The notes under the pieces were generated by a model that was given only the letters and a program-made list of their open reading frames with translations, made no database searches and was not told the DNA's origin. From Gammaproteobacteria bacterium (GTDB taxonomy: Bacteria; Pseudomonadota; Gammaproteobacteria; CBDBBL01), in the NCBI GenBank assembly GCA_965203125.1, contig CBDBBL010000018.1, positions 11,949 through 75,948 on the forward strand: a DNA stretch of 64,000 nt, given 5' to 3'. This document shows positions 13,244 to 63,002 of the stretch, piece by piece (the first letter of the stretch is position 1; the number at the start of each line of letters is the position of its first letter). A program made the position numbers and the translations under genes.

Positions 13244-13318
13244 ACCCCCTCCAAAATGAATACATCTACCAATCTTTAAGGTATCATGTACAAAGATAAT
13301 ATTACGAAATGGTGCATT

Positions 13319-21167: not shown

Positions 21168-23631
<2,464 letters not shown>

Positions 23632-25200: not shown

Positions 25201-26985
25201 CTATTTAGGCAATAACCCTCGACCCCTTCTAAATTTCAAACTTAACTGATATAACTGACTATTTTGATAGACTCTAGTTTGCTCCTCAAAAACCCTCAAG
25301 AAAAGCACATCATCTTCCATACTAGAAAGCATAGTATAGGCAATATGCACTATCTTCGCGTAATTGGATGCCAAGAACCTTCCATCAATCACCAACACCT
25401 CTTTAAGTGTTACATCGCTAGTATCTTTTAAAGAAAGATAATCATCGTGGGACTTATCACTTCTACCACTAAAAGCCTCCTTAATTCTTTGGTGATAGTC
25501 AGGGATGAACTGATGAAAACTGCCATCTCCATTTGGACAGTGTTGAGCTAATGACGCAAATAAGTACACCATCGTCCTCACATCAACTAACAAGGCGTGT
25601 AACATCGCTAGCTCCATGCCATTCAAGACTTCAGAGCGAAAAATCAAATCACAAGTATCCTTCAATCCATCCACCATCTCTCGAAAGTCACCACAAATTT
25701 CATCAGCTCGCTCACGCAATTTTAGATGATATACTTCTTGTGCATCATAAGCAGAAAGCCCATCAGCACCAGAACACCGATAAGATAAATTATAGGCATA
25801 TCCAGTCAAGGCATTACATATATGTAGCAGCGCATCAAACGCATCTTTCTTAAAACAGTTATCACCCAGCGGCTCATGATAGCCAACTTGTAACAACAAC
25901 AATAACTTCTGCTGCAAAACTCTCAAAGCGCTATTTGCACCTGGCGCATGCTCTGCCTGATAAATCCCCCTCCGCCACTCTTGAATGAATTCTAAAAACT
26001 GAACGGCATCACTTATCAACGAAAAAACACTATCTGGAATCAAATCACAACAATCCTCAGCTGGAATGATTTGTCTCGTCAACCACTGTAATTTCGAATA
26101 ATCCCTAGCAGAAACAACCCGTGATGTAACAACTGGTGAACTCAGATCACCAGAAGAAGTCAAGATTAAAGCACTCTCAATCTCTATAATACGCCGAAAG
26201 ATCGGCACCATATATTTCAAAAAATCATTACATACATGACTTACATTCTCTACTCCACACTGATGAGAAGATCCTGACTTCAACACATAACCAACTGGAG
26301 ATGAAAAAGCACTTGGACTAGACTGCATTAACTCAATAAACGGCTCGAACTTGGATTCCTCAAAACACTGAAAAAGACAAAGCCCTTGATTATTTGCAAA
26401 CATAATATTAAACACGTTTCTCACGCTAGAAAATGCCCCTAATCCAAAATCTAACAACAACCCTCGCAGGCAAGAAGCGATAGAAAGTGGATTAACAACA
26501 CCCTCACCTCGATTGGGATCTGCAAGAACCGCTGAAATCGTACCAAAACCAAAGTGGTGCCCACCATGAAAGCAAAAACTAAAAAGATAAAACAGCAAGT
26601 CCACCAAATAATACATGAGCCAATTGCGCTCAAACTCAAGCATAAGAGATGAATTAGAGTGAATAGAGCCTAGAAGCTCTTGAAGATGATGCGACTGCTG
26701 CATTTGCTGCAACCAAACATCTACCGCAGCATTATTGTAAGAAAAGCAGGCTTTACCCCTTGAAAGGCGCTTACTGACATCTCTACTTTTAAATGCAGAC
26801 GGTGCAGACTCTTGCATTGAATAAGCTCTTGCTATGGTAGCCTTAGAAAAAACTTCGCCTGCTGCACAATGATCTTTTGCCACTCTTGCTAACGCAAACA
26901 AATATCCTTCCAAAATGGAATCTGGCAATGTGTGGTATTTAGTAAAAGCACCTTTTTTCGACTTATAACGTATAACTCGCATCAC
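25201..26985 (-). CDS. large orphan protein (594 aa), hypothetical; candidate secreted effector
   Basis: Long uninterrupted ORF with no P-loop, signal peptide or other recognisable motif. Confidence 0.45.
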   Translation of the reverse strand: MMRVIRYKSKKGAFTKYHTLPDSILEGYLFALARVAKDHCAAGEVFSKATIARAYSMQESAPSAFKSRDVSKRLSRGKACFSYNNAAVDVWLQQMQQSHHLQELLGSIHSNSSLMLEFERNWLMYYLVDLLFYLFSFCFHGGHHFGFGTISAVLADPNRGEGVVNPLSIASCLRGLLLDFGLGAFSSVRNVFNIMFANNQGLCLFQCFEESKFEPFIELMQSSPSAFSSPVGYVLKSGSSHQCGVENVSHVCNDFLKYMVPIFRRIIEIESALILTSSGDLSSPVVTSRVVSARDYSKLQWLTRQIIPAEDCCDLIPDSVFSLISDAVQFLEFIQEWRRGIYQAEHAPGANSALRVLQQKLLLLLQVGYHEPLGDNCFKKDAFDALLHICNALTGYAYNLSYRCSGADGLSAYDAQEVYHLKLRERADEICGDFREMVDGLKDTCDLIFRSEVLNGMELAMLHALLVDVRTMVYLFASLAQHCPNGDGSFHQFIPDYHQRIKEAFSGRSDKSHDDYLSLKDTSDVTLKEVLVIDGRFLASNYAKIVHIAYTMLSSMEDDVLFLRVFEEQTRVYQNSQLYQLSLKFRRGRGLLPK

Positions 26986-31157: not shown

Positions 31158-31904
31158 CTAAGAAGCACTTTCTTTTTTAAATGGATTAAAGTCTAGAGAC
31201 ATATTTGTAATATTTGTTTCAGGAATCACCTTGCGTAAAATAATTACTATGATATTAGCAGGAATGGAGCAACCTATCGAAAACAAGACCTTAATCAAGT
31301 AAGAAGTAATAATCATACGCACAAGAGTTGTGTCAGGAAAATTATTATATTGCATTAATAAAATTATAAGGACTGTATAAATCAACTCACCTATTGTTGA
31401 GGAACCTATACTTCTAATCCAAAAATACCTCCCCTTCCAAAGTACTTTCCACTTACTGATCAAATATAAGTTCACCGTACTTGCCACCACATAAGAAAAG
31501 AAAGATGCGAAGCTCATTCGAAGCAATGGAGAAAATACGAAATTATAATGACTTTCTCCTTGCCAATAGGCAGGTGAAGGTAGATTTATACTTATCACAC
31601 AGATAGTAGCAAATAATAGCTGAAAGAAAAAAGCTGCCTGAATCACAACAAATGTATGCTTATAACCGAATAGTTCAGACATTATATCTGCTGAACAAAA
31701 AATAAAGGGCACAATTAACACACCAGCCAAAGTAATTGCTGGATCAAATGCTACTACCTTATTTGTTAAAACAGCAGAACAAAGCACTAAAGTCATATAA
31801 ACCATACTCAAACACGCAAACGCCAAAGTTGGCAGGCTAAGTGATTTTGATTGTATTTTTAACATTCTCATACCTTCTGAAACAACACACCTAACCGAAT
31901 ACAT
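31158..31904 (-). CDS. YhhQ/DUF165-family membrane protein (putative queuosine-precursor transporter), paralog 1
   Basis: Polytopic membrane protein with the family-like segments PFIFCSADIMSELFGY and WIRSIGSSTIGELIYTVL and the C-terminal FNPF motif shared with the paralog at 34063. Confidence 0.6.
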   Translation of the reverse strand: MYSVRCVVSEGMRMLKIQSKSLSLPTLAFACLSMVYMTLVLCSAVLTNKVVAFDPAITLAGVLIVPFIFCSADIMSELFGYKHTFVVIQAAFFFQLLFATICVISINLPSPAYWQGESHYNFVFSPLLRMSFASFFSYVVASTVNLYLISKWKVLWKGRYFWIRSIGSSTIGELIYTVLIILLMQYNNFPDTTLVRMIITSYLIKVLFSIGCSIPANIIVIILRKVIPETNITNMSLDFNPFKKESAS

Positions 31905-33427: not shown

Positions 33428-33985
33428 TCATAACGTTAATTCTTTCGCCCAACAATCTATTAATCGAGGTGTTGCTCTCATAGGAAGCCAAATTAATAAT
33501 TCTTGATAAATGCCGTTGAGAGAAGAACCCTCCAAAACAGCCTGCCCTTTGGAAATAACGATTGCGAATTGAATACATTTCCAAGAAAAATTAAAAATTT
33601 CCACAAGAGAGGAGGAAGCATTACCAGAAAAATCATACAAGCACTTACTGTGTGCCTCAATTTGGCTGCTTAAGTGAAGCCAGGCATCATAGCAGTTATC
33701 AGTATTACAGTATAATCTCTGTTGTATAAATTCAAGACCATGTGACATCTCATCTGCCATCGCTGCATCGCCTATGCCTACGGCGAATGCTGTAATCAAC
33801 ACCATTAACCCCAAGTTGGTGACACCTTCTACGGTCACTTGTACTTTGCTTGGCGTCGGTAACTGTTGAAAGTATTTTTCTGCAAATTTCTCAATCAGTT
33901 GACGGGATTGAGCATCACTGAGGATTACGAGGATTTGTTTTGCCATTTGTTCAGTGATGTGGAATGTATACCCATCGCTTTTCAA
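33428..33985 (-). CDS. hypothetical protein
   Basis: 185-aa ORF with no recognised family. Its 5' end abuts a subfamily-A MITE fragment. Confidence 0.4.
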   Translation of the reverse strand: MKSDGYTFHITEQMAKQILVILSDAQSRQLIEKFAEKYFQQLPTPSKVQVTVEGVTNLGLMVLITAFAVGIGDAAMADEMSHGLEFIQQRLYCNTDNCYDAWLHLSSQIEAHSKCLYDFSGNASSSLVEIFNFSWKCIQFAIVISKGQAVLEGSSLNGIYQELLIWLPMRATPRLIDCWAKELTL

Positions 33986-34062: not shown

Positions 34063-34779
34063 CTAGTTATCTTCCTCCACAAGCGCAGAAAATGGATTAA
34101 AAGAAACTGTATTACTTGTATAATCAATCTTTTTAACCACCTTTATATAATAAACTATCAGTCCTCCAATTGGAGCACAAATAATGGCATAAATTAATTT
34201 AAGGACATAGGATACTACTAATAAATTAACTATTTGCTTTATAGTCAAAATACCACCAAACCCTAAAGGAAATGCAACTAGCGAATTCACAAGCTCACCA
34301 ACCGCTGATGACCCAATACTTCTTAACCAAAAATAGCGACCAGCTACTAAAAACTTCCATCTTACAATCATAAAAGAATTTACAATTGTTCCTATCCAAA
34401 TCGCAAAAAAACCAACAACCATAAACTTCATACTCATCTCAAAAACCTGATGATATGCTTTAGAGTTATTATAAAAATTAGGAGATGGAATTTGAATCAC
34501 ACCAAACATTAATACAGAAAATATAGCGGCTCCTAATAAAGAATAGAAGATTATTTTTTGAGTAACACGATACCCATATATTTCAGCAACAATATCTCCA
34601 AGAAAAAATATCAATGGGAACACAATTAAACACGCTGAAATTAAGAAGCCATGAATTACAATAATTTTATTGGTCAGCACTAATGATGCTATAGTTGTCA
34701 TGACATACAACACTACAACAAATATTGGCACCTTGACACCTTTTTCAGCTGAGCTTACAAACCTCTTTACTTCATTCAT
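34063..34779 (-). CDS. YhhQ/DUF165-family membrane protein, paralog 2
   Basis: Collinear with paralog 1 (PLIFFLGDIVAEIYGY; WLRSIGSSAVGELVNSLV; C-terminal FNPF). Confidence 0.6.
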   Translation of the reverse strand: MNEVKRFVSSAEKGVKVPIFVVVLYVMTTIASLVLTNKIIVIHGFLISACLIVFPLIFFLGDIVAEIYGYRVTQKIIFYSLLGAAIFSVLMFGVIQIPSPNFYNNSKAYHQVFEMSMKFMVVGFFAIWIGTIVNSFMIVRWKFLVAGRYFWLRSIGSSAVGELVNSLVAFPLGFGGILTIKQIVNLLVVSYVLKLIYAIICAPIGGLIVYYIKVVKKIDYTSNTVSFNPFSALVEEDN

Positions 34780-36379: not shown

Positions 36380-39211
36380 CTATACAACAATTAATGCACC
36401 TAGAGCAATTTCATCAACAACAGGTAATAATTCTTTCCCTATAATAGCAACACTCGAGATTACGGCACTTAATTGAATACCTTTCCAGTTAGATTTTACT
36501 AAGCTTTTTGCCGATGTTTTTTGTAACATTATAGGTGGGATGTGATCTTTATCTTGCGGTTTAAGTGTAGCGGAAAATGCTATATCACCACTAATTTTCC
36601 AACTGTCAAAAACTTTGTCTATGGATGTTGGAGATGCTATAAAAACTAGATTATACCCAACCATTGTAATACTATCACTAACAAATTCCCCAGTAACTTT
36701 ACTACCAATCATTAACTGCTCATGACTAGTCGGTCGCAATGTCATCCCTGAGAAAAAATCACCCAACATATTCTTAGCCGATATTTTATACTGATTTAGA
36801 ACAAGTTTGCCAGCGGGATGCGTCCCTTGTTTTTGCAAACTCATACTACCAGACAAGGTTGTCTTATAGATGTATGGCTTATCTTCAAAAACAATCACAC
36901 CAGTCACTGGAGAAATCACACTCAACTCTAGTGATAGCACAGGAAACAGATTCGTCAATACTGTTGAGGCAGGTTTCAACTTTAGATCACCTACACTTAA
37001 ACTGGGCAATACACTCAACGATGGGGACGAGGACAGCACGGAGGCTTCCGCAGCCTTCCCTTGCCCACCTAAATTCATTTTACCTTGGGCATTACCTTGA
37101 GCAGACACCGCTTTTTGTGTATTCGTCAGCGGTTCTCCTCCACTGATTTTCCCGATCACTTCCACTTGGCTGCCGTTAATGGTTAGTCCTTGACCATCGA
37201 TTTGAAGCCGTGCCTGTCCATTGTGAATATTGATTTGCTTGCCTGCTTGTAGCCAGTGGTTGAGGTCACTGAGTATCGATAGGTTTCCTTGGTCTGCACT
37301 GACAATCAGGTTGCCCTGCTGGCTGTCCATACTGATTCCATCTCCAGCAATGATTTGATGATTTTTCTCAATTTGATGTTGTAGTTGCTGTTTGCTGATT
37401 ATCGTACTATTTTGCTCGCTCCGTTGGCTAATGTCTTTGTTTGCCACGCTGTGTTGACTACCTTTTTGACTCACTTGACTTGCATCACCTTCTATCGCTA
37501 GTTGATGTTGTCCCTTCGCTTGTTGTATGAAGTTATTTTCGGTTGTTGTGATGTGGTTTTGTTGCGCTGTTTCAGCCAGTGTGCCTTGTGAGGTCTTGAG
37601 CATAACACGATGTTGTTGTTCATTCGCATCGAGTTGTATTTGATGTTGTTTTTCTGCTGTCTGTAAGGTTATTTTGCTTTTTTTACTGTGATCATCTAAA
37701 CACAGTTGATGTCCACTTTGGGTTTGCAAATGATGTTGGTGTCGATTTTTTTGTGTCACCACACTATGTTGTTGTGAATGAGGAAAGGCGCCGAGTATGA
37801 TGGGGCGATTGGCATTACTGGCTTCAAAATCCACTAGTACCGTTGTACCTGTTAGCAAGGAGAGGTGTTTGCCGTGATTCGATCCATGATGATCCATGAG
37901 GTGACGAATACCACAGCGATCTGCCCCAATTCGCTGTTTGTCCTCATCCTCTTGTAATTCAAGATAATAATGCCCCTGCTCAGTGAGTGAAGCACTTGTC
38001 TTCATCGCATGAATGTTCCCCCAAGCATTACTGGAGTTCTTCGGCTGTTGTTGTGGCATCATTTGATAACGTTGTTCTGCCTTAATCATCGTAAGCTGGC
38101 TACAATCATTGCCACGGTTGGCTTGATGGTCAAGATCTGCATCGCTACCTTGCTGGCTCAACCCAATTAAACGCCATGTGCCGTTGATACTGAGCGTCGG
38201 GCAAGCTTCTATGGTGATTAAGCTACCCATGGGTAAATTAAGGCAATTTGATTTTGCAGTCAGTTGCTGGGCTTGTGTTTGGTGCGCGCGTTGATAGTTT
38301 CCAGCCAGTTGTTCTCCTTGTTTTTTGTCGATGTAGTCACTGCCATAAATCACATTTTTCGAGTCACTGGTTGAGACGTTTTCTTGTTTGTGATTTTTTT
38401 CTTGATGATTGGCTGTTAAATCAACATGAGGTCGTGAGAAGTGTGTTTGATGAAGCTGAGTTTTTTTTGGTAACGTATCGATTTGTCGACTTTGTATATC
38501 CCAAATACTTGGGGTAATTTTTTCATGGTTAGCCGCAAGGTCATTCGAGTTGATAAACCATAAGCTTTGTGATCGATCATTAATCGGCTGGTCATTGAAC
38601 CATAGTTCAAAATAATCGGCAAAATGGCGACAGTAAAAGACAATGCCGTGATCAGCACAAATACGTCGTAAAAAATCATAATCAGATTCATCAGCTAACT
38701 GTGTTATCAAGTCTTGTTGCCAATCACTATGGGTTATTTGAAAGTGTGCCTGCGCCTTTAATAGTGGATAATTGCTCAATACCTGCTGAATGATACTGCT
38801 GATCGTTTGATTAACAAAAGTACGGTGGTAGTTGCTATCTTTTAATAGTCGCAGTGGTGATTTGATACTGACGGCGTAATGAATACCTGATTCAGTTGTC
38901 TCATGGGGATCCAGTGTGACTTGAGCAATCATACCATGATAGTAAGCCTCAGGTTGACCGAAGGTTTCTAAGTGAAACACAGCATAAGATGACAAGTATT
39001 CTTGAAGCTGTTGCAATGCAATAGGATGTTGCACACACAGTGTTAGCTCAATGGCATAATCTGCAGAGATTTCTTCGTTGCAGAGTTTAAATTGACTAAC
39101 AGGATACGTCGATTGATCAATCTTTAAGCTTGCTTTCATCTTTGTACTTTGGCAAAGTTCTTTCGCCTGTACAATACTGGAAATCACGCTATAGCTAACA
39201 CGGTTAAGCAT
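36380..39211 (-). CDS. vgrG: type VI secretion tip protein VgrG with a ~250-aa C-terminal extension (evolved VgrG)
   Basis: gp27-like N-terminal region (…YHRTFVNQTISSIIQQVL…) and the gp5 OB-fold signature TVLVDFEASNANRPIILGAFPH (compare the canonical EVLVDFLEGDPDRPIITG). A long extension ends in a hydrophobic tail. The true start may be MKASLKID at ~39139. Confidence 0.8.
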   Translation of the reverse strand: MLNRVSYSVISSIVQAKELCQSTKMKASLKIDQSTYPVSQFKLCNEEISADYAIELTLCVQHPIALQQLQEYLSSYAVFHLETFGQPEAYYHGMIAQVTLDPHETTESGIHYAVSIKSPLRLLKDSNYHRTFVNQTISSIIQQVLSNYPLLKAQAHFQITHSDWQQDLITQLADESDYDFLRRICADHGIVFYCRHFADYFELWFNDQPINDRSQSLWFINSNDLAANHEKITPSIWDIQSRQIDTLPKKTQLHQTHFSRPHVDLTANHQEKNHKQENVSTSDSKNVIYGSDYIDKKQGEQLAGNYQRAHQTQAQQLTAKSNCLNLPMGSLITIEACPTLSINGTWRLIGLSQQGSDADLDHQANRGNDCSQLTMIKAEQRYQMMPQQQPKNSSNAWGNIHAMKTSASLTEQGHYYLELQEDEDKQRIGADRCGIRHLMDHHGSNHGKHLSLLTGTTVLVDFEASNANRPIILGAFPHSQQHSVVTQKNRHQHHLQTQSGHQLCLDDHSKKSKITLQTAEKQHQIQLDANEQQHRVMLKTSQGTLAETAQQNHITTTENNFIQQAKGQHQLAIEGDASQVSQKGSQHSVANKDISQRSEQNSTIISKQQLQHQIEKNHQIIAGDGISMDSQQGNLIVSADQGNLSILSDLNHWLQAGKQINIHNGQARLQIDGQGLTINGSQVEVIGKISGGEPLTNTQKAVSAQGNAQGKMNLGGQGKAAEASVLSSSPSLSVLPSLSVGDLKLKPASTVLTNLFPVLSLELSVISPVTGVIVFEDKPYIYKTTLSGSMSLQKQGTHPAGKLVLNQYKISAKNMLGDFFSGMTLRPTSHEQLMIGSKVTGEFVSDSITMVGYNLVFIASPTSIDKVFDSWKISGDIAFSATLKPQDKDHIPPIMLQKTSAKSLVKSNWKGIQLSAVISSVAIIGKELLPVVDEIALGALIVV

Positions 39212-39279: not shown

Positions 39280-40071
39280 ATGAAACACTTCCACCCAAAG
39301 AAAGCCCTTCTTATGCTTTGCCTGATTTTCAGCACACCCTGTTTTGCTATGGAAAAACCAACTAACATTATATTCGATGCATCACTTGCAAACAGTCCCA
39401 TTAAGGGGTTTGTACAAACTCCTATCGGCGGCACCCCAGGCACATCTAGCCCAAATCGCCCAACATTGACTGAGCTAGGTATCACCCACCAAAACATGGG
39501 CAACCTCAACCTGCAAGCAAACTGGAAAGATACCTTTGGGTTTATTGGAATACAGCTGAACCAAATGAAGCATACCTCAACATTGCAACAAGCTTTAATG
39601 ACACATGGCGTACTTATTCATATTGGCACCACTATTCATAGTAAACTTAAGTTCAACTTATATCACATCGGTGGTGGCTACCAATTTCACCCCACGCATC
39701 ACTTAACACTTTCACCCACTGCCATACTAACAGGCATGCGATTCGATTATGAAATTGCATCTTATATCACCCCAAGACGTTATAACCATTATACGCTGGA
39801 ACTCGGCGCTCAAGCACGTGAGCAACTGACTGAAAAAACCGCGATACTATTCGAGGGCGCGTTCTCCTCCCCTGGATTTAATGAGCTTAATGTTAAGTCA
39901 GCGAAGATGAAACTATCACGGCAAATTTATCAGCATCAAGGTATCAGCAGTTCAATTTATGCAGGACTGGGGGTCATGTCATTAGATTTCAAAGACACAC
40001 AGCCAATGCCAAACCATCTACATATCAGCACAGGTATGCAGTGGATTGCTGGCTTTAGAGTATCAGTTTAA
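39280..40071 (+). CDS. secreted protein, probable outer-membrane beta-barrel (hypothetical)
   Basis: Signal peptide MKHFHPKKALLMLCLIFSTPCFA; alternating amphipathic strands; aromatic-rich C-terminus. Divergent from vgrG with a 68-bp gap. Confidence 0.45.
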   Translation: MKHFHPKKALLMLCLIFSTPCFAMEKPTNIIFDASLANSPIKGFVQTPIGGTPGTSSPNRPTLTELGITHQNMGNLNLQANWKDTFGFIGIQLNQMKHTSTLQQALMTHGVLIHIGTTIHSKLKFNLYHIGGGYQFHPTHHLTLSPTAILTGMRFDYEIASYITPRRYNHYTLELGAQAREQLTEKTAILFEGAFSSPGFNELNVKSAKMKLSRQIYQHQGISSSIYAGLGVMSLDFKDTQPMPNHLHISTGMQWIAGFRVSV

Positions 40072-41053: not shown

Positions 41054-41222
41054 AGATTGACACTAGCTGCTTCAACAAAATGCTATCTGCAAATACGCTG
41101 GATACAGTCACTGCAACGACACCTGCAAATACTAGCGCAAGCAGTAGCGCAAATCCATTAGATTTCTGATTCATACAGCAATTACCTGCTGCCATTGCTG
41201 GCCTCCAAGCATAAACTGCCAC
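41010..41222 (-). pseudogene. remnant of a pilin-like small protein (MNQKSNGFALLLALVF…) whose 3' end is replaced by MITE A2
   Basis: Prepilin-like hydrophobic N-terminus without the conserved Glu5. The C-terminal codons read into the MITE. Confidence 0.35.
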
Positions 41223-41758
41223 AACACCCAGTGTATATTACGCCACTCTTTCACAGTGCTTGCGGTTTCAAAATCAAGATGACCCGCTGTTACTATGCCA
41301 TAAAGAAATTGCAATCTTGTCACGTCAAATAGATGAATCACTGCGTGCGAATGCAGGTGGTTCATCTTAAAATACAAAGCAGTTTTATGTCCTGAAATAG
41401 AGGTTTTACCCATATAAGCGTAAATAGATTGCCATTTTCCTTGCACACAAAGCGGTAACAATACTTTATTATTTGAGAAATTCATTGAACTAACACCATG
41501 AACAACAGGCTCACCTTGTATGCGACAACTTGAATGTTGTGATAATTGCTTTAAATAATGACTCAATAACATCACATCTTGCAAAGAAGTATTGTCTTGA
41601 TTAATTTTGCCAACTTGCTGAAAGACCTGAACACTGAGTGAAGTGATTATCAAAAAGACAATCACACTCAACATCATAGCAACCAGCAGCTCGAATAAAG
41701 TATGACCACCCTGAAACCTAATATTACACATGTAGCTCAACCTGTAGTTTGCCAGCAC
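41171..41758 (-). CDS. type IV pilus minor pilin, PilW-like (prepilin N-terminus GHTLFELLVAMML)
   Basis: Class III signal/pilin N-terminal motif G-x-T-L-x-E-L-L-V followed by a hydrophobic helix. Confidence 0.5.
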   Translation of the reverse strand: MLANYRLSYMCNIRFQGGHTLFELLVAMMLSVIVFLIITSLSVQVFQQVGKINQDNTSLQDVMLLSHYLKQLSQHSSCRIQGEPVVHGVSSMNFSNNKVLLPLCVQGKWQSIYAYMGKTSISGHKTALYFKMNHLHSHAVIHLFDVTRLQFLYGIVTAGHLDFETASTVKEWRNIHWVLWQFMLGGQQWQQVIAV

Positions 41759-48675: not shown

Positions 48676-49797
48676 TCAATTTACCACCAAGTCTCGACCC
48701 AACCAATGTTGCGCCACTTCCGCACCTCGGTAAGGTGGCATCACCGTGTTCTTTGATACCTCTGGCTGCCAACCCTTTTTCGCAAGAAATATTGCCGTTC
48801 CACGCTTTTCACTGTACGCACAAGCACCGAACGTAGAGATATTCCAGCGGTATTTTTGAAAAGTTTCAAAATCAAACTGATGCCTTTTCATACCTTTTAT
48901 ACTTGGCTGCCAACCTTCTAGCTGAAAAAAAGTATCAGGCTTACCTTGCCAAACGGTTGTCGGGCCAATTAAAAACGACAATAAAAAACCATCGTTTTTC
49001 TTTGCACTTGACTGATTGATACGCAGATAATTGCTCGAATGCAAATTAACCGCCAAAGTGTAATGGGAATTACCTAGATTATGATGTTGATCACGCGACA
49101 ATTGCTGCCGAAACGATCTCAAAAACCCCGACCTAGATCGATCCTCAACATCTCTGACCACAAAATGTCCGCCCAAGAGAAATAATTTCAGAAACTCCCT
49201 GACATTAACATCCGAGTTATCGTTGATACCTAAAGCGTTTGAAGATGTCGAGGATTTAACATAATGAGTTTGAGCAGAATCAAATTTACAGAATGGCGCA
49301 ATAGCACCGCTATTGCGAGAGCTTGTAGATTTGCATTCTGACAAACTCATGCCGTTAAAGTTCGGCGTCTTCAAGTGCTTTGGGTATAGAGATAAATCAT
49401 AATGTTGGTAACCTAAAATACGATAAGTTGGAGCAGCTCCTGATTTACCCACATATTCTAGCTGTGGTTTATACATCACTAACTTATGCTCAATCACATA
49501 TCTCTTAATAAATTGGATAAGTGCCCTATCCTTACTATTTGTTCCCTCAGGCGTTTTCCCATTCCAAAGCTCAACCAAATAATCTAAAGTACGATTGAAA
49601 TTCTGCAACGAATAAACAACATGATCACTTCCTTGCTGATAAATACTGTCCTGATAACGATCTAAATTACGCACACCCTGCTCAAAGAGACTATTAACAT
49701 ATTGATTTTTATTACTCAAAGAAGCATCAAGATTCACAATCGAGGCCTGACTAAGTGCAAAACACCCCATCAATAACACACCAATAAAAGCCCTCAT
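48676..49797 (-). CDS. secreted hypothetical protein (signal peptide) carrying an in-frame 55-aa MITE-encoded insert
   Basis: Signal peptide MRAFIGVLLMGCFALSQA. The internal segment LYPKHLKTPNFNGMSLSECKSTSSRNSGAIAPFCKFDSAQTHYVKSSTSSNALGI is encoded by MITE B2. Confidence 0.5.
   Translation of the reverse strand: MRAFIGVLLMGCFALSQASIVNLDASLSNKNQYVNSLFEQGVRNLDRYQDSIYQQGSDHVVYSLQNFNRTLDYLVELWNGKTPEGTNSKDRALIQFIKRYVIEHKLVMYKPQLEYVGKSGAAPTYRILGYQHYDLSLYPKHLKTPNFNGMSLSECKSTSSRNSGAIAPFCKFDSAQTHYVKSSTSSNALGINDNSDVNVREFLKLFLLGGHFVVRDVEDRSRSGFLRSFRQQLSRDQHHNLGNSHYTLAVNLHSSNYLRINQSSAKKNDGFLLSFLIGPTTVWQGKPDTFFQLEGWQPSIKGMKRHQFDFETFQKYRWNISTFGACAYSEKRGTAIFLAKKGWQPEVSKNTVMPPYRGAEVAQHWLGRDLVVN
49225..49389. 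mobile_element. MITE copy B2, in frame inside the CDS 48676-49797
   Basis: …gcgtttgaagatgtcgaggatttaac…gcgcaatagcaccgctattgcgagag…gttcggcgtcttcaagtgctttgggtatag. Confidence 0.8.
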
Positions 49798-51355: not shown

Positions 51356-51613
51356 ATGACTGAACGCATCCACAAAATACGGCAATGTCTTGAAACATCT
51401 TTAGCACCAGAACAGCTACATATTGAAGATGAGAGTGACCAACACATTGGACATGCAGGTGCGAAATCTGGTAGAGGCCACTTTGCCCTCACCATTAAAT
51501 CCAAACAGCTATCGAAACAAAATAAAATAAAAGCACATCAAATGATCTATCATGCGCTCGGAGAGCTAATGAACACAGATATTCATGCCTTACGCATTAA
51601 GATTGAAAAGTAG
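51356..51613 (+). CDS. BolA-family protein (YrbA/IbaG-like)
   Basis: 85 aa; BolA signature …DESDQHIGHAG…HFALTIKS…. Confidence 0.8.
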   Translation: MTERIHKIRQCLETSLAPEQLHIEDESDQHIGHAGAKSGRGHFALTIKSKQLSKQNKIKAHQMIYHALGELMNTDIHALRIKIEK

Positions 51614-52103
51614 TCAATATCAATTCTTTGGTATTATATAAGTTATAATACGTCCCATCAAAAAAGAAATGAAACATACCCAAGAAAAAACCAATCATTA
51701 GCAACAGCATTATCACACCTGAAATCACACCATAAAAAGCCCACCTCTTCTGCACTCGCTGGAATTCCTCAACACTGCCCCAATGTTTATTCCTCCACGC
51801 CCAAACACTGCCTCGACTGGCTAAGACAAAGGGTATTATCCAACCAATCACAGGAATGAAGCATAGGATGCTCAGGTAAACATTATTACCCAACCCCCAA
51901 ATCCACGTTAGCATGAATGCACCCCAATTCCATTTGCGAATTTCAGGAGGAATGGTTGAGAAATCACCTTTTCCTGAAATATATTCATCGCCTTTAGGAA
52001 TATCAGTTTTCAACGACTTCCTATCTATACCCAGCGCAGTTGAAGATATCGAGTTTTTATCAAAATGATTTTGAGTAGCATTGAATTTAAAAAACCGAAT
52101 CAT
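51597..52103 (-). CDS. small membrane protein, hypothetical; the N-terminal ~30 codons of the ORF are encoded by MITE B4 (the real start is probably internal)
   Basis: Three TM segments in the C-terminal two-thirds. The N-terminus (…NSISSTALGIDRKS…) matches MITE-encoded peptides seen elsewhere in the window. Confidence 0.4.
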   Translation of the reverse strand: MIRFFKFNATQNHFDKNSISSTALGIDRKSLKTDIPKGDEYISGKGDFSTIPPEIRKWNWGAFMLTWIWGLGNNVYLSILCFIPVIGWIIPFVLASRGSVWAWRNKHWGSVEEFQRVQKRWAFYGVISGVIMLLLMIGFFLGMFHFFFDGTYYNLYNTKELILTTFQS

Positions 52104-55061: not shown

Positions 55062-55759
55062 CATTGTGCATACTGACCCAAATCATATTGCAGAATAATG
55101 TGCTGAATCGTTGATACGTACCAAACACCTCTCTCAGAGTAATTACTCAATCCTACCGCCATCTGCACACCCAAGTTCATCGTCTTCTTCTCACTCAAGA
55201 AGTCTCGACGAATCTGCCACAATTGTTTGTGCGCTGAATTACGGTTTAAGTTTAAAAAATAAGCAGCCACGGAGGCTTGCCTTGTTGGAAACTTCTGCAC
55301 TGCAAAACGCCACTGACTAGAACGATCTTTCGGCTTCAAACCACACTGTGGCTGAGAGCACCATTGACCAAAATAGTTATGTGCCTGCCTAGCAAACCGT
55401 GACTGCCCCCATGCTGACTCATTAATCGCTTGCGCTAACACCAAAGAAGCAGGAATGATGTTTACTCTTAAACTTAACTGCTGAAATAAACGACGATTAA
55501 CTCCAACAAATGGTAGATTAAAACGTGCCGCTAATGATAACAACCACATCTTCTCTACTGAATTCAAATGATTGTTGGCTTGCCATAACGATTGATAATG
55601 TAAAATCAATTGGTGCATTTTGTGATACTTCACATTAGTTGCACAAATTGCTGGCACCATTTTTTGAATAAACTGAGTCTGCTTCTCAGTTAGTTTTTTA
55701 GGCGCAGCGTAACTGTATGATGAGAAAATAATACAATAGCAAATCAACACCCATTTCAT
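55028..55759 (-). CDS. Bax-like secreted protein with a glucosaminidase (FlgJ C-terminal type) domain
   Basis: Signal peptide, then ASLVLAQAINESAWGQSRFARQAHNYFGQW, typical of the mannosyl-glycoprotein endo-beta-N-acetylglucosaminidase domain. The C-terminus IPKPHEDTKL is MITE-derived. Confidence 0.65.
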   Translation of the reverse strand: MKWVLICYCIIFSSYSYAAPKKLTEKQTQFIQKMVPAICATNVKYHKMHQLILHYQSLWQANNHLNSVEKMWLLSLAARFNLPFVGVNRRLFQQLSLRVNIIPASLVLAQAINESAWGQSRFARQAHNYFGQWCSQPQCGLKPKDRSSQWRFAVQKFPTRQASVAAYFLNLNRNSAHKQLWQIRRDFLSEKKTMNLGVQMAVGLSNYSERGVWYVSTIQHIILQYDLGQYAQCIPKPHEDTKL

Positions 55760-58554
55760 GCTGAAATCAGACTTTTGGTGACCACCTCTTTCACATCATT
55801 GGACAATCCTTGATTTTGCTTAATCCGCTCTAACACCTGCTTCATCAGCTGCTGTCGTGGCAAATCAAACTTCCTCCAGTAAATCAATGGCTCTACCAGC
55901 CGAGCTGCCAGTTGTGGATTAAAACGATCTGCCTCCAAGATTTGCTGTTGCAGAAAATGATAGCCTGAACCATCAATCACATGAAATGCGATTGGATTAT
56001 TAACACAAAACTGTCCCACCAAAGCACGCACTTTATTTGGATTACAAGCATCATATGCCTCATGTTCCAATAATACTTGTACTCGACTCAACGCGCTGCC
56101 TCCTTCAAGCGAATCATGAGCAGTTGCTTGTAATGACAACCACTTATCGACCACTAGTGCTTGGCTCTGCCAGCGTCGATAAAAATGCGCTAACTGTTCA
56201 TTCCTTTGGACTGAAGCCACTTGATTCAATGCTATTAACGCCCCAAATTCATTAGTCATATTACGTGAACACTGGTACTGATCAACACAATGCGCTCTAA
56301 TTTCTGGCGTCGATGCTATTGCTAGCAACTTCATGCTTGCATTTTTTAAAGCCCGCAGCCCAATTTGATCACTATCATACTCAGCAGTACCTGTCTTATT
56401 TTGCTGACTTAACACCAATAATGAGGACCTTAAAGCAATCGAAATTGCTTGCTGATAATGATCTAATGCTTGAGCTAAATATTCCAACCTCACTTGATCA
56501 AACATAGCTATTAACTCTGCTAAAGTCGGCAATGTTAACAGTCGCGCTTTCAACCCACAGTCAAGTGTATCATCATCCACAATGCACTGGTAAGCATTGA
56601 TAATACGCTGATCAATTTGGACAACCCCACCTTGTTTCAAGCTATCATTTGCTTGCTGAATTGCCCCTATCAGCAATTGATTAGTAATATCCCAACGATT
56701 AAACCCATCTGTTTCATGCTGCATCAGACATAAAAGTGAATCAATTGAATAAGTATAATTCATTTTAACTGGCGCTGAAAAACCACGATTTAATGAAACA
56801 ATGGGCTGTTCATCAACCGACTCAAAAATAAACGTTTCCACTTCCTGCGTCACATGTAATACATTGGAGTCACTTAAGCTTCCCTGTTTCAACATCAATG
56901 GTATTTGCTGCCCATCATGAGTAAACAACCCAATACGCAACGGAATAAAAAACGGCAACTTTTCAGAACCATCTGCTGTATTATCACAATGCTGCTCAAT
57001 CGTTAAATGGTAATACTGTGTTGCCTCATCATAACGGTCTGTCACCGTCAGAATCGGCGTTCCTGCCTGATGATACCAGCGTTCAAATTGTGTTAAATCA
57101 AATTCTGATACTTCGGACATGCAAGCGACAAAATCTTCTGTCGTCACCGCTTGCCCATCAAAACGAGAAAAATATAAATCAGTCCCTTGACGATATTTTT
57201 CTTGCCCCAGCAAGGTATGCAACATGCGAATCACTTCCGCACCTTTGTTGTATACAGTCACCGTATAAAAGTTATTAATCTCATCAAAATGATCAGGACG
57301 AATGGGATGCGCCATCGGTCCTGCATCTTGTGCAAACTGTGCACTACGAATGATCTTAACATCATCAATCCGTGTCACCGCTTGCCCAACCTGATCTTCG
57401 GTAAAAGACTGGTCACGAAAAACGGTTAAGCCTTCTTTTAAACTTAATTGGAACCAATCTCGACAAGTGACACGATTACCTGACCAATTATGAAAATATT
57501 CATGTGCAACAACACCTTCCACTGCAATCAAATCTGCATCTGTTGCAGTTTGTGCATTCGCTAAAACATATTTGGTATTGAAAATATTGAGCCCTTTATT
57601 CTCCATCGCACCGAAGTTAAAGTCACTCACAGCAACAATCATGTAAATATCTAAATCATATTCACGACCATATTTCTCCTCATCCCAACGCATTGCACGC
57701 TGTAAAGAAGCCATTGCATGTTGTGTTTGATCTAAAAACCCTTTCTCCACATAGAGCTTTAAATCAACATTACGTCCCGACTGAGTAATAAACTGATCAG
57801 ATAAACAATCAAAATCACCTGCAACTAACGCAAATAAATAACAAGGTTTTAAGGATGGATCCTGCCAAACCACTTGATGACGCCCATCAGCAAGATCACA
57901 AGCATCGATTTGATTACCATTAGATAACAACTGGGGAAATTTGCTTTTATCTGCTCGAATTGTGGTCGTAAAATACGACAGTACATCAGGACGATCCAAA
58001 AAATAAGTAATCCGTCGAAAACCATGTGATTCACATTGCGTACAGTAGTTGTCATTAGAAATGTACAGCCCGCTTAAAGTTTTATTAGTCTTCGGACTAA
58101 TAAAAACTGTCGTTTCCAATAAGAATGACTCACTGGGTGGATTCAGAATCGTTAAACCTGTCTCATCAACCTGATAATCAGTACCATCTATACCCAAATC
58201 ACTTGAAGACGCCGAGGTTTTAACATAATGAGCTTGAGCAGAATCAGATTTAAAAGATTGAGCAATAGCATCGCTACTGGGAAAACTTTTAGATTTGTAT
58301 TCTGCCGAGCTCATGCCGTTAAAGTCCGGCGTCTTCAAGTGATTTGGGTATAAAACTTGCCCATTGAGCTTAAGCATATGTAATTCAAGTTGTTCCCCAT
58401 TAAGAAACAGTGGCTCATGAGCAGGTGTATGCGCTTGTCTTTTTAACTTTAACTGACTAATAACACAAGTACGTTCTTCGGCTAAATCAAAAATCAACTC
58501 AACTTGGCTGATTTGGTAATTCGGCACTTGATAGTCTTTTAAATAAGTTGTCAT
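55756..58554 (-). CDS. pepN: aminopeptidase N (M1 family) with an in-frame 54-aa MITE-encoded insertion near the N-terminus
   Basis: HEYFHNWSGNRVT…LKEGLTVF zinc-binding and gluzincin motifs, collinear with E. coli PepN. The extra segment YPNHLKTPDFNGMSSAEYKSKSFPSSDAIAQSFKSDSAQAHYVKTSASSSDLGI matches MITE B6 exactly in position. Confidence 0.9.
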   Translation of the reverse strand: MTTYLKDYQVPNYQISQVELIFDLAEERTCVISQLKLKRQAHTPAHEPLFLNGEQLELHMLKLNGQVLYPNHLKTPDFNGMSSAEYKSKSFPSSDAIAQSFKSDSAQAHYVKTSASSSDLGIDGTDYQVDETGLTILNPPSESFLLETTVFISPKTNKTLSGLYISNDNYCTQCESHGFRRITYFLDRPDVLSYFTTTIRADKSKFPQLLSNGNQIDACDLADGRHQVVWQDPSLKPCYLFALVAGDFDCLSDQFITQSGRNVDLKLYVEKGFLDQTQHAMASLQRAMRWDEEKYGREYDLDIYMIVAVSDFNFGAMENKGLNIFNTKYVLANAQTATDADLIAVEGVVAHEYFHNWSGNRVTCRDWFQLSLKEGLTVFRDQSFTEDQVGQAVTRIDDVKIIRSAQFAQDAGPMAHPIRPDHFDEINNFYTVTVYNKGAEVIRMLHTLLGQEKYRQGTDLYFSRFDGQAVTTEDFVACMSEVSEFDLTQFERWYHQAGTPILTVTDRYDEATQYYHLTIEQHCDNTADGSEKLPFFIPLRIGLFTHDGQQIPLMLKQGSLSDSNVLHVTQEVETFIFESVDEQPIVSLNRGFSAPVKMNYTYSIDSLLCLMQHETDGFNRWDITNQLLIGAIQQANDSLKQGGVVQIDQRIINAYQCIVDDDTLDCGLKARLLTLPTLAELIAMFDQVRLEYLAQALDHYQQAISIALRSSLLVLSQQNKTGTAEYDSDQIGLRALKNASMKLLAIASTPEIRAHCVDQYQCSRNMTNEFGALIALNQVASVQRNEQLAHFYRRWQSQALVVDKWLSLQATAHDSLEGGSALSRVQVLLEHEAYDACNPNKVRALVGQFCVNNPIAFHVIDGSGYHFLQQQILEADRFNPQLAARLVEPLIYWRKFDLPRQQLMKQVLERIKQNQGLSNDVKEVVTKSLISA
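58189..58352. mobile_element. MITE copy B6, in frame inside pepN
   Basis: tatacccaaatcacttgaagacgccgaggttttaac…gcaatagcatcgctactggg…gtccggcgtcttcaagtgatttgggtata, 164 bp. Net 162 bp if TA is a shared target duplication. Confidence 0.85.
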
Positions 58555-58647: not shown

Positions 58648-60288
58648 TTAGAACCTGTAAAAAACAACTGGGTTTCTTGCAGGGTCAGGGTGATAAACAT
58701 TCATAAAATCAAGCATTGTGTATGATCCTTGCTGGTAGCACATTGCATCACATGAACATGCTTCTGGTCTTTGATAATGCCTCTTAACATAAGCTAACTT
58801 CATCGGCAGGTTTTGCAAAATCGACTCCATCTCTCTTAAGTGCATATTCACACCTCGAATCACGATTTCTTGTGTTAATCTAAATCGTTTACAAATCTTA
58901 CACAACGGTTCAAATAAAGCATACAGCTGCGCCCACTGGATCAATGTCGAAGTTGTCAAGATTAGATCAACACGATAACTTTGATCACTCTGCTTATCTA
59001 ATGGATCAAAATAATACAACTCTGCCGATTTAATCAAGTCACCTAACTGCATTCTTAAGATCTGCGTGATACTATTTTCTGACACAATCGGCGCATAATC
59101 AAGTGGTAAGATTCTAAGTTTGACCAGTTGCTTACGTAAAGCAAACAGTGAAATTAGCTTTGCTTGAGGGTTCAAAGCGACAGGAAGCTGCTTTAAATTG
59201 TGTTGCTTAAATTTATCCATCGAATAGTAACAGTGGATACTCTGATCAGTTGCTGTTTTTACCTCAACAAACGCAAACTTTTTTTGATGGGTTAGCACCT
59301 CATGGGTTAATAACCTACCTGATTTATCAAACAAACAAGGTGTCATCTTACGACCAGCCCAGTACCCATAACCATATTCAAAACCCAATTGCTCATATTG
59401 CTCAATATCCCTTAAAGCAATGAAGCAATACACGGGAATACCATTAACAGGTACAGATATAAAAGTTAAATTTGCCCAAGCAACATGTTGATGCTGCTGC
59501 ACCCGTGATGAAAAGCTAAAATACTCGCTTGAATTTAATCTAAAATCAGCGTTTTGACGAAACATATATTGTGCATATTGTTCGTAACTGATTGCACTTG
59601 TTGCCGGAAAACTGTTTTGTGCATCAGTTAGGAAATAACCATCGGCAGTATATTTGAACATGGCAGGCATTTGCTCAGGATGCTGGTGATAACGATTGAG
59701 CCTTTGCAAAGCGTCATCTTGATTATTCGGCATATGTTGTATAAATCTTGCCAATCCACCAATATCTTTCGCACTAATATGGGAATCAGCAGTTCCTCCC
59801 AGTGGATAGTCGTCTCCAGTTGATATCGCACCTAACTGATGTAATCCTGCATAAGTTAAAACCACTTCACCTGCTCGAAATTTTCGATTGGCAAATAAAC
59901 CACACCCAACTCGATCATCTATCTTTGCGACAATAAAATCATCCGAAGGGGATTGACATAAACGAACAGACACCAATCGTTGTAAGTCTCTATCGAACGC
60001 TTGTGGTGGTAATTCCATTTCTCTATCGATTTGAGGTGTCACCCATGTGCTTTCTGAGTATTGAAAGTGATGTATCACCTCAAGCCTTGATACTGCTGTC
60101 CTAGTAATTCTACTAGGAATAATCGGTACCTGATCCATTGTTAATACATAGTCAGAACTAGCACTTTTCACACGATCTATATTCACATGTCTTCTCGAAG
60201 TAGTCACAATGTTTGCCGATTGAACAATACGCTGTGATGATTGATGAGAACGGCGATATTTTTTCTTAGCTTTGCGACCCATAGGCAT
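58648..60288 (-). CDS. SET-domain protein (putative protein lysine methyltransferase; eukaryotic-like effector candidate) with a basic NLS-like N-terminus
   Basis: Three SET signatures in order: GxG region VGCGLFANRKFRAGEVVLTYAGL; NHSC-like ARFIQHMPN; ELxFDY-like EQLGFEYGYGYW. The N-terminus reads MPMGRKAKKKYRRSHQ. No secretion-system signal recognisable from sequence. Confidence 0.5.
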   Translation of the reverse strand: MPMGRKAKKKYRRSHQSSQRIVQSANIVTTSRRHVNIDRVKSASSDYVLTMDQVPIIPSRITRTAVSRLEVIHHFQYSESTWVTPQIDREMELPPQAFDRDLQRLVSVRLCQSPSDDFIVAKIDDRVGCGLFANRKFRAGEVVLTYAGLHQLGAISTGDDYPLGGTADSHISAKDIGGLARFIQHMPNNQDDALQRLNRYHQHPEQMPAMFKYTADGYFLTDAQNSFPATSAISYEQYAQYMFRQNADFRLNSSEYFSFSSRVQQHQHVAWANLTFISVPVNGIPVYCFIALRDIEQYEQLGFEYGYGYWAGRKMTPCLFDKSGRLLTHEVLTHQKKFAFVEVKTATDQSIHCYYSMDKFKQHNLKQLPVALNPQAKLISLFALRKQLVKLRILPLDYAPIVSENSITQILRMQLGDLIKSAELYYFDPLDKQSDQSYRVDLILTTSTLIQWAQLYALFEPLCKICKRFRLTQEIVIRGVNMHLREMESILQNLPMKLAYVKRHYQRPEACSCDAMCYQQGSYTMLDFMNVYHPDPARNPVVFYRF

Positions 60289-60485
60289 AATCCAAACTGA
60301 TTTGCTATCATCTTAATGGTTAATAGGTAGTGTGACAAATTAGTTGAATCAACCAGCTCTCTCATCATTCCGCGATGGCGTGCGGAATGGTGAGGGGATA
60401 TGCAGTTACTGTCACTACATTTATTTATTCTCATAGAACAATCTCAATTTATGTGAGAACAGCAGTAAAATAAAGCCGATTACAA

Positions 60486-60812
60486 TTGCAAAACAGCCTA
60501 TGTGTGAAAAGACATGAGAAAAGTACTGAAGCGCACGGAGCAGGAGCGAGACATACTAAAAAAGGCGGCAGCGTATTTTGCGAGCGAAAAGCTGTGAAAT
60601 ACGCATTCATTAAAAACAATCGTCATACCTGTCGTGTAGATCTGATGGCACAGATGTTAAGCGTGAGCACATCAGTCACTAGGGAGCAAGCTAGATCATC
60701 CATCTTTGAGTATATTGAAGCCTATTTTAATACGCGTAGGCGTCATAGCGCCATTAATTACGTGACTCCAGATCAATTTGAACGTATTATTTGGATTGAT
60801 AAAGTCGCGTGA
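60486..60812 (+). pseudogene. remnant of an IS3-family transposase (end of OrfA and start of OrfB, frameshifted/truncated)
   Basis: …EQERDILKKAAAYFASEKL (OrfA C-terminal consensus), then in another frame KYAFIKNNRHTCRVDLMAQMLSVS and …YFNTRRRHSAINYVTPDQFE (the IS3 OrfB C-terminal RPH…LGY..P motif). Only ~330 bp remain. Confidence 0.6.
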
Positions 60813-61891: not shown

Positions 61892-61955
61892 ATCGCAATC
61901 AAGTGCTTATAATTTCAAACTAAAATTAAGGAACGCGTACAAAAACCATGCTGAC

Positions 61956-62119
61956 TATACCCATCACCTTTCAAGACGCCGGAGTTTTAACAAAATGAAT
62001 TTTAGAAAAATTAAATTTAAAAAATCGAGTAATAGCAAGCTATTGCGAAAGTTTTTACATTTCAATTTTGCAAAATTTATGAAGTTAAAATTCGGTTTCT
62101 TGAATGGTGATGGGTATAG
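61956..62119. mobile_element. MITE copy A6; it supplies the ATG and first ~13 codons of the downstream acyltransferase
   Basis: tatacccatcacctttcaagacgccggagttttaac…cgagtaatagcaagctattgcg…cggtttcttgaatggtgatgggtatag. Confidence 0.85.
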
Positions 62120-63002
62120 ATACCCATTAGCACTTCTTAGTATCATACTATACACACTATCCCTCACAAGCATTGCTATTCTCAGTATTTTACTGCTTCC
62201 ATTACAATACCTAGTTCTTAAATCATCTTGGCGTCACGCCGTTCGCAACGCACTCTATAAACACTTAACTGAGCTTTGGGTACTTATAAATCATTGGATA
62301 TTCCAGCTTACTTGCAAAACTAAACTGGAAGTGGTCGGGGAACAAACGTTGTCTGAAGATAACTGGTATTGCATCATGGCTAACCATCAATCCTGGGTTG
62401 ATATCCTCCTCATGGGTGAACTCTTGCGTAAAAAAACACCTCCGCTACGCTTTTTCATGAAACAAGAACTGATTTGGCAAATCCCTATCGTAGGTATCGC
62501 ATGCTGGGCGTTAGGTTACCCTTTCATGAAACGTTATTCTCGCGCCTATTTACAGAAACATCCTGAAAAACGAGGTCAGGATTTAGAAACCACAAAACGA
62601 TTTTGTCAAAAATTTAAAACATTGCCCATTTCTATTTGTAATTACGCTGAGGGAACACGCTTCACCTCAGCAAAACACAAACGACAACAATCAAACTATA
62701 CTCATTTATTGAAACCGCGTGCTGGAGGCATTGCCTTTGTATTAGCTGCTATGGATGGCATGGTGAAGCACCTTGTGGATGTCACCATGGTTTATCACCA
62801 CAATAAGCCCAATACTTGGAACTTCTTGTGTGGGAGAATTAACAAAATCACCCTACACTATCAAGTCATTCCAATCACAACAGATTTGATTGGTGACTAT
62901 AATAACGACTCAGCGTTTCGCAACCATTTTCAACAGTGGATCAATCAACGTTGGGAAGAAAAAGATCTACTGATTGACACTATCAAACACGACTCTCGAT
63001 GA
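61995..63002 (+). CDS. PlsC/LPLAT-family acyltransferase (HX4D), paralog 2; the functional start is probably the MITE-internal ATG at ~62079 (MKLKFGFLNGDGY…)
   Basis: MANHQSWVDILLMG and AEGTRF motifs; collinear with the paralog at 43362-44420. There is no in-frame ATG between the MITE and the HX4D motif. Confidence 0.7.
   Translation: MNFRKIKFKKSSNSKLLRKFLHFNFAKFMKLKFGFLNGDGYRYPLALLSIILYTLSLTSIAILSILLLPLQYLVLKSSWRHAVRNALYKHLTELWVLINHWIFQLTCKTKLEVVGEQTLSEDNWYCIMANHQSWVDILLMGELLRKKTPPLRFFMKQELIWQIPIVGIACWALGYPFMKRYSRAYLQKHPEKRGQDLETTKRFCQKFKTLPISICNYAEGTRFTSAKHKRQQSNYTHLLKPRAGGIAFVLAAMDGMVKHLVDVTMVYHHNKPNTWNFLCGRINKITLHYQVIPITTDLIGDYNNDSAFRNHFQQWINQRWEEKDLLIDTIKHDSR

Follow-up and report, generated by a model that had tools for sequence, protein, structure and literature searches.

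Does a 64,000-nucleotide stretch of gammaproteobacterial DNA (contig CBDBBL010000018.1 of assembly GCA_965203125.1; the whole stretch is called the window here) encode an enzyme that modifies the proteins of a eukaryotic host? The question is raised by a minus-strand gene at 58648-60288 of the window. A sequence-only reading had described its product as a eukaryotic-like SET-domain protein whose N-terminus resembles a nuclear-localisation signal (NLS) and, on account of mobile-element remnants nearby, as horizontally acquired. To our knowledge, bacterial nucleomodulins with a SET domain are known from a small number of pathogens, and a structural understanding exists for RomA/LegAS4 alone. The explanation that we favour, with evenly divided confidence, is that the gene codes for an intact, probably active lysine methyltransferase built of a SET domain and a companion C-terminal domain (CTD), and that a host-associated gammaproteobacterium most likely translocates it as an effector.

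The SET domain and its catalytic residues

Open reading frame (ORF) calling in the window gave a complete gene of 546 codons with an ATG start. The public record of the protein (P0001) starts at Met3 and has 544 residues; translation may begin at Met1 or Met3, and the GTG codons 28, 35 and 40 are also possible starts. The three SET signatures named in the sequence-only reading were located in canonical order, as GCGLF (residues 128-132), ARFIQHMPN (180-188) and EQLGFEYGYGYW (299-310). Moreover, the SET fold that the same reading expected is recovered by profile and by structure. The Pfam SET model (PF00856) matches residues 128-306 over its full length (positions 1-105) with 34.3 bits (E=3.5e-8), above a gathering cut-off of 22.4 bits that is also passed by 86 of the 96 relatives scanned. 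The structure model shows the SET beta-fold, and Foldseek assigns it to G9a/GLP with a probability of 1.00 over about 200 columns. A profile built from the family retrieves EHMT2 (E=4e-18), EHMT1 (E=8e-17) and LegAS4 (E about 1e-8), the latter by the N-terminal half of the SET domain only (profile positions 95-154), and a PDB search with the sequence of this protein alone yielded only a marginal match to EHMT1. The protein has a genuine eukaryote-type SET domain, nearest to those of G9a/GLP.

As judged from the alignments, most residues of the S-adenosylmethionine (AdoMet) site are retained, together with the catalytic Tyr. In an alignment of 18 sequences, G128, Y146, G148, Y161, R181, H185 and Y305 are invariant, and G130, F182, P187, N273, Y309, W310 and P317 are also invariant or nearly so in the SET core of the family. 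Over 96 relatives the sole invariant column is Y305, the Tyr of the ELxFDY signature (E299-Q-L-G-F-E-Y305 in this protein). The Asn-His pair of the NHxCxPN motif is incomplete: His185 is invariant, and Gln184 stands for the Asn. The expectation that the AdoMet-binding residues would be intact holds for GxG, YxG and most others and fails at this canonical Asn. Gln is found at the position in 70 of 86 family members, and QH is therefore a trait of the family and no lesion of a single gene. Both its profile match and its fold place the protein in the SET superfamily; the Asn of NH is the point at which it deviates from the textbook definition. It is probably an active AdoMet-dependent lysine methyltransferase, since GxG, YxG, Y161, R181, H185 and Y305 are conserved. 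Phe303 lies at what we take to be the Phe/Tyr switch position (F1152 in G9a, so that the Phe is presumably common to both); the enzyme is therefore predicted to be capable of going beyond monomethylation.

The sequence-only reading had rightly pointed to an unusually long spacer between the NHSC-like and ELxFDY motifs. His185 and Glu299 are 114 residues apart, compared with about 35 in G9a. In the profile alignment, NHLC (chain residue 195) and PRIAFF (214) of G9a are separated by 18 residues, and the present protein therefore carries about 79 extra residues. This insert separates the QH motif from the A[WF][AS]N strand, interrupts the NHxCxPN motif, and differs among family members in both length and sequence. 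The terminal Asn of the split motif may be N273.

EHMT2 and EHMT1 (G9a/GLP) are the nearest solved relatives by both sequence profile and Foldseek. They have GxG, YxGE, RFI-x-H and ELGF-x-YG-x-x-W in common with the protein, at an identity of 15-20%. In contrast to them, it has an insert-split QH-x-P in place of NHLCDPN and lacks the ankyrin reader domain, the pre-SET Zn3Cys9 cluster (residues 47-117 hold a single Cys) and the post-SET Cys cluster (no CxCx4C follows Y305, and H-M-P stands for H-x-C). Because the zinc clusters are absent, the protein stands outside the SUV39/EHMT (G9a-type) subfamily.

RomA/LegAS4 of Legionella pneumophila, a Dot/Icm-translocated H3K14 methyltransferase, belongs to another SET subfamily. 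RomA has an NLS (residues 27-53), a SET domain (117-221, with R178, N181 and Y220) and a C-terminal ankyrin domain, which accounts for roughly half of the contacts with the H3 peptide and is required for activity; RomA is thus a bacterial effector in which a substrate-binding domain at the C-terminus cooperates with the SET domain and with an NLS at the N-terminus (PMC10653858). The present protein differs from RomA by a Gln for Asn181, by the post-QH insert, and by a C-terminus with a predicted new alpha/beta fold where RomA has the ankyrin repeats needed for H3 binding. It falls outside the RomA/LegAS4 family, since it has no ankyrin repeats and its closest relatives are other proteins. Indeed, the suggestion that it is a variant distinct from the known bacterial SET effectors is borne out by the QH motif, the insert and the new CTD. 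Chlamydia NUE, Burkholderia BtSET and Bacillus BaSET are far shorter proteins with little outside the SET core; set against this general description, the present protein has in addition a structured N-flank, the insert and the CTD. All three have been reported as bacterial SET proteins directed against host histones (PMC7542358).

The C-terminal domain and the family

The sequence-only reading had described the C-terminus as about 240 unrelated residues, which needs correction. Directly behind the SET domain stands a conserved CTD of about 170 residues (about 333-505), followed by a disordered tail of about 40 residues. A hidden Markov model of the CTD found the domain in 52 of the 152 listed family representatives, always in this position, and in the family alignment the domain ends in T-x-E-[IV]-x-I-x-G-V-N. 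Modelling predicts a new alpha/beta domain. The CTD has no relative in Pfam or PDB, where its profile gave only noise against the latter, and no match in PHROGs. The tails of several members carry a loose [FY]F-x-x-[QD]-P-G/A motif, loosely shared by the tail of the present protein as [FY]-x-x-[DQ]-P, and several members have an aromatic residue close to the very end of the protein (VVFYRF, WMHFNG, LRQFRL, RYFVIKR). Tails of this kind may hold a signal for secretion or a short linear motif.

In an exhaustive HMMER search of 1.84 billion protein cluster representatives, 288 proteins had E<=1e-3; 114 of them reached E<=1e-10, and nine E<=1e-30. Identity to the best homologue is 36%, and many matches align over residues of about 45-495. 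Word-indexed protein searches, even with the family profile, returned only the protein itself and one relative (25% identity). The protein had no match when 185,579 reference genomes were scanned by pattern, nor in NCBIfam, PADLOC or PHROGs, and a scan of viral contigs revealed no relatives. The idea of a defence-system or phage protein was rejected, as it produced no matches. With the exception of proteins from the amoeba Anaeramoeba flamelloides, the members are named 'hypothetical protein' or 'SET domain' only, and full-text literature searches did not find a description of the subfamily. By its sequence traits this is an undescribed subfamily, set apart by the QH motif, the insert that splits NHxCxPN, a WYADKPP-type N-flank and the new CTD. 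The consensus of the N-flank in the relatives is W[YV]ADKPPLLGG...YSE, and the first of these motifs is degenerate in the present protein (VLTMDQVP).

Almost all family members come from uncultured bacteria. Fusions are found among the 96 members scanned, 12 with Ank, seven with TPR and four with zf-MYND. P0007 (798 aa; locus L089, 5448-7844) has two SET modules in tandem and, behind them, ankyrin repeats, and P0278 (608 aa; locus L085, 10001-11827) has a zf-MYND finger reminiscent of eukaryotic SMYD proteins. Seven distinct contexts of relatives are all bacterial. They lie among housekeeping genes at loci that are all different, such as rimP-nusA-infB-truB, tsf-rpsB, rpmB-rpmG, htrA and rnhA, on contigs with a GC content of 34-51%. 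Common neighbours are ankyrin-repeat proteins, a TPR/Sel1 protein of 1952 aa and giant proteins of 773-2588 aa without Pfam domains. A rough neighbour-joining tree, which has no support values and includes two of the three amoeba paralogues described below (P0015 and P0101), is star-like with long branches; it places the protein beside P0003, P0004, P0009 and P0017, and P0015 and P0101 within the spread of the bacterial members.

A. flamelloides has at least three SET-CTD paralogues (P0015, KAJ3447016.1; P0058, KAJ3447023.1; P0101, KAJ3443104.1), two of the three on one 575-kb contig. They share the SET-CTD unit and its motifs with the bacterial protein at about 25% identity, but in the amoeba it forms the C-terminal part of longer eukaryotic proteins (1083-1644 aa), of which one or more are annotated as TPR proteins, whereas the bacterial protein has 546 aa. 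These paralogues suggest that genes have passed between amoebae and the bacteria living inside them. For A. pumila, a symbiont of the Legionellales that carries genes derived from its host has been reported (bioRxiv 10.64898/2026.04.11.717937).

Function and origin of the gene

In the model that we favour, the effector would be injected into a protist host, where its SET core would methylate a lysine of a host protein, perhaps one from the nucleus such as a histone. The CTD may act as a target-recognition module, by analogy with the ankyrin repeats of Legionella RomA, and the basic cluster at the N-terminus may add nuclear targeting in this lineage. A host-directed effector fits better than a housekeeping enzyme because the sequence is G9a-like and the distribution orphan-like, fast-evolving and scattered. 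Translocation into a host is further suggested by the fusions to eukaryote-type interaction modules, by the ankyrin, TPR and giant-protein neighbours of the relatives, by the SET-CTD unit in an amoeba, and by a basic cluster that is the strongest in the window. The missing signal peptide also fits: no hydrophobic stretch of this kind occurs in residues 1-46, and direct reading of the sequence revealed neither a signal peptide nor a transmembrane segment in the protein. A wider version is tentative and rather doubtful. SET-CTD would then be an unrecognised effector family swapped between intracellular bacteria and anaerobic amoebae, in which the QH motif and the insert reshape the cofactor or substrate pocket towards a specificity unseen in known SET enzymes, and the new alpha/beta domain, joined in some members by Ank, TPR or MYND, reads the target.

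The N-terminus is strongly basic, as the sequence-only reading described. The sequence MPMGRKAKKKYRR has seven K/R in nine residues, with a K-K/R-x-K/R match at KKYR (9-12), and its K/R density is the highest among 49 long ORFs of the window and among 150 family members. The cluster is nevertheless specific to the lineage, and nuclear targeting appears to be the weakest link of the effector model. Several observations speak against that model. The nearest relatives are without the cluster, and P0003, the nearest homologue, has a Pro/Thr/Ala-rich N-terminus in its place. Furthermore, the cluster sits in a low-confidence region of the structure model, and its extent hinges on the start codon. 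Gln184 occupies the canonical position of an AdoMet-contacting Asn. The window holds no Dot/Icm genes; its sole secretion-related gene is vgrG (36380-39211, minus strand), 19 kb from the SET gene. The C-terminal tail has few acidic residues and no obvious Dot/Icm character. Finally, no Legionellales names occur among the top matches of the AspRS encoded in the window, which is at most about 67-68% identical to sequences from Methylophaga and metagenome-assembled genomes, with Methylophaga making up most of the named matches.

An alternative is an endogenous enzyme that is never secreted and methylates one of the bacterium's own proteins, for instance of the nucleoid, the ribosome or the envelope. 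We consider this unlikely. The gene does have core chromosomal neighbours (pepN, band-7, hemC) with the same GC content overall and at third codon positions (GC3), neither a secretion signal nor a linked secretion system was found in the window, and SET proteins acting on their own chromatin proteins have been discussed for archaea, with a bacterial origin argued for bacterial SET genes (PMC3980110). Such an enzyme should, however, show conservation and synteny; instead, the protein is a near-orphan with a best match of 36% in a star-like tree, and each relative sits at a different locus. The proximity to G9a/GLP, the fusions with Ank, TPR and zf-MYND and the amoeba copies point to eukaryotic targets. 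It is quite improbable that the protein is a catalytically dead SET pseudo-enzyme serving for binding or as a scaffold only. The replacement of the Asn by Gln184, at a position that forms the active site of RomA together with Arg178 and Tyr220 (Asn181; PMC10653858), and the insert might abolish AdoMet binding, and the post-SET zinc cluster that seals the cofactor pocket of G9a-type enzymes is missing. Nevertheless, purifying selection maintains QH as a hallmark of the family (Gln in 70 of 86 members), Gln preserves the amide of Asn, and there is little or no variation at GxG, YxG, Y161, R181, H185, Y305 and Y309-W310 despite great divergence, a pattern that would be unexpected in an inactive protein. 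Orthology to a known bacterial SET effector, be it RomA/LegAS4, NUE, BtSET or BaSET, is highly improbable, on a sequence comparison that covered RomA/LegAS4 among these: the family profile matches G9a/GLP far better (E=4e-18) than LegAS4, which it meets in the N-terminal SET half, the protein has no ankyrin repeats, and its insert and CTD have no counterpart in the architecture of RomA (PMC10653858).

As to the origin of the gene, a recent acquisition mediated by IS3, in which it arrived with the adjacent insertion sequence, is improbable. The elements that had suggested it are real. A relic of an IS3-family transposase lies 198 bp from the start codon, close to the 200 bp first estimated, and copies of a miniature inverted-repeat transposable element (MITE) flank the gene on both sides, one at about the distance given in the sequence-only reading (1.6 kb) and a second, nearer one; the patchy phyletic distribution would also agree with transfer. 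The relic, however, is a single heavily deleted piece. Its OrfA tail (60508-60588) matches OrfA residues 48-74 and is 70% identical to OrfA of Piscirickettsia salmonis, and the other part covers positions 336-369 of the 369 in the NCBIfam model transpos_IS3, with 44 bits against a cut-off of 160. Neither OrfA nor OrfB is intact, the DDE (rve) core is missing, and no second copy that could pair with the relic across the gene occurs within the window. The MITEs are spread over the whole window, which makes adjacency to one uninformative. Moreover, composition gives no sign of transfer: GC and GC3 are 0.390 and 0.322 for the SET gene, 0.400 and 0.332 for pepN and 0.399 and 0.329 for band-7. Given this composition, the window-wide MITEs and the dead IS3 piece, the support that had been drawn from these elements for horizontal transfer is thin. 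Better evidence comes from the sparse and divergent spread of the family (36% best match, different loci), which suggests that the gene is accessory; its acquisition, if any, is an old event. Eukaryotic contamination was rejected, as the SET gene lies within a bacterial chromosome whose composition it matches.

Features of the window and significance

The window holds chromosomal core genes (AspRS, SecDF, Tgt, S1, Cmk, TrxB, PepN, HemC). The relatives of its PepN in the reference genome scan are at most 49% identical and, as judged from its proteins, the carrier is a divergent gammaproteobacterium. The features of the SET gene and its surroundings are collected in the table. The sigma-70-like sites around the gene, one of which is listed, are no more numerous than expected from shuffled sequence.

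Table. Parts of the SET-CTD gene and nearby elements, in coordinates of the window (pLDDT, predicted local distance difference test score of the structure model)
Feature	Coordinates	Strand	Remarks
SET-CTD protein ORF	58648..60288	-	546 aa + stop; from ORF call, Pfam and family alignment
N-terminal extension, residues 1-46	60151..60288	-	specific to the lineage; pLDDT <50 for residues 1-37
Basic cluster RKAKKKYRR, residues 5-13	60250..60276	-	resembles a monopartite NLS
Structured N-flank, residues 47-117	59938..60150	-	single Cys; YSE kept (E79)
SET core, N-terminal half, residues 118-189	59722..59937	-	G128xG130, Y146xG148, Y161, R181-F-I-Q184-H185-M-P187
Post-QH insert, residues 190-268	59485..59721	-	modelled as mostly helical; pLDDT 47-77
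SET core, C-terminal half, residues 269-330	59299..59484	-	N273, beta-hairpin, E299-Q-L-G-F303-E-Y305, Y309-W310, P317..F320
CTD (predicted alpha/beta), residues 331-505	58774..59298	-	P369, S380, R385, P429, E474 and N481 invariant or nearly so
Tail, residues 506-546 + stop	58648..58773	-	pLDDT <50 from residue 509
Weak sigma-70-like site, TTGTCA-17-TAAGAT	60310..60338	-	22 nt upstream of the ATG
IS3-family relic	60486..60812	+	OrfA tail and last ~35 residues of OrfB
MITE-like element	61955..62119		~165 bp; 33-nt inverted termini; 1.67 kb from the SET gene
Second MITE-like copy	58189..58352		26-nt perfect inverted termini; in pepN, 296 bp past the SET stop

The MITE family is short, has inverted termini and dispersed copies and is without a transposase. 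At least eight termini of the type TATACCCAAATCACTTGAAGACGCCG occur in the 64 kb, compared with 0 expected by chance (sites at 1642, 8210, 49363, 49813, 49951, 54898, 58189, 58327 and 61955-62119); aligned copies are about 80% alike, and no match was found in a plasmid collection. The copy in pepN (55756-58554, minus strand) is an in-frame insertion of 54 residues (about 73-126) that leaves the ORF open and is absent from five PepN homologues. In this behaviour it resembles the palindromic elements of Rickettsia, here in a gammaproteobacterium. In an acyltransferase ORF (61995-63002, plus strand), the first 42 or so codons (MNFRKIKFKK...GDGYR) lie within the other copy; either the gene takes its 5' end from the MITE, or translation really starts further downstream.

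VgrG has 943 aa, with Phage_GPD at residues 46-357 and a long C-terminal extension, and in the 37-39 kb interval GC skew and AT skew are reversed relative to the rest of the window. The SET protein was rejected as cargo of a type VI secretion system linked to this vgrG (36380-39211), 19 kb away with unrelated genes between. Among the core genes are further long ORFs without Pfam domains (168-594 aa), at 25201-26985, 24510-25157, 48676-49797, 39280-40071, 41171-41758, 51597-52103, 33428-33985 and 11969-13396. They may be other lineage-specific or effector-type proteins, and some, e.g., 11969-13396, may be spurious. Two paralogous genes of the putative vitamin uptake transporter family Vut_1 (31158-31904 and 34063-34779, minus strand) and tgt (21554-22666, minus strand) hint at dependence on a salvaged queuosine precursor, in line with a host-associated life.

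This gene reveals a separate, unnamed family of 288 representatives with a catalytic-motif variant of its own. About a third of the listed members carry a companion domain without known relatives, and an amoeba genome encodes the same SET-CTD unit. Should the proteins prove to be translocated methyltransferases, they would add to the ways in which bacteria are known to mark host proteins, and would provide a new recognition domain as well as a natural NH-to-QH variant for the study of the SET mechanism. If their substrates are bacterial, they would be a rare example of regulation by SET enzymes within bacterial cells.

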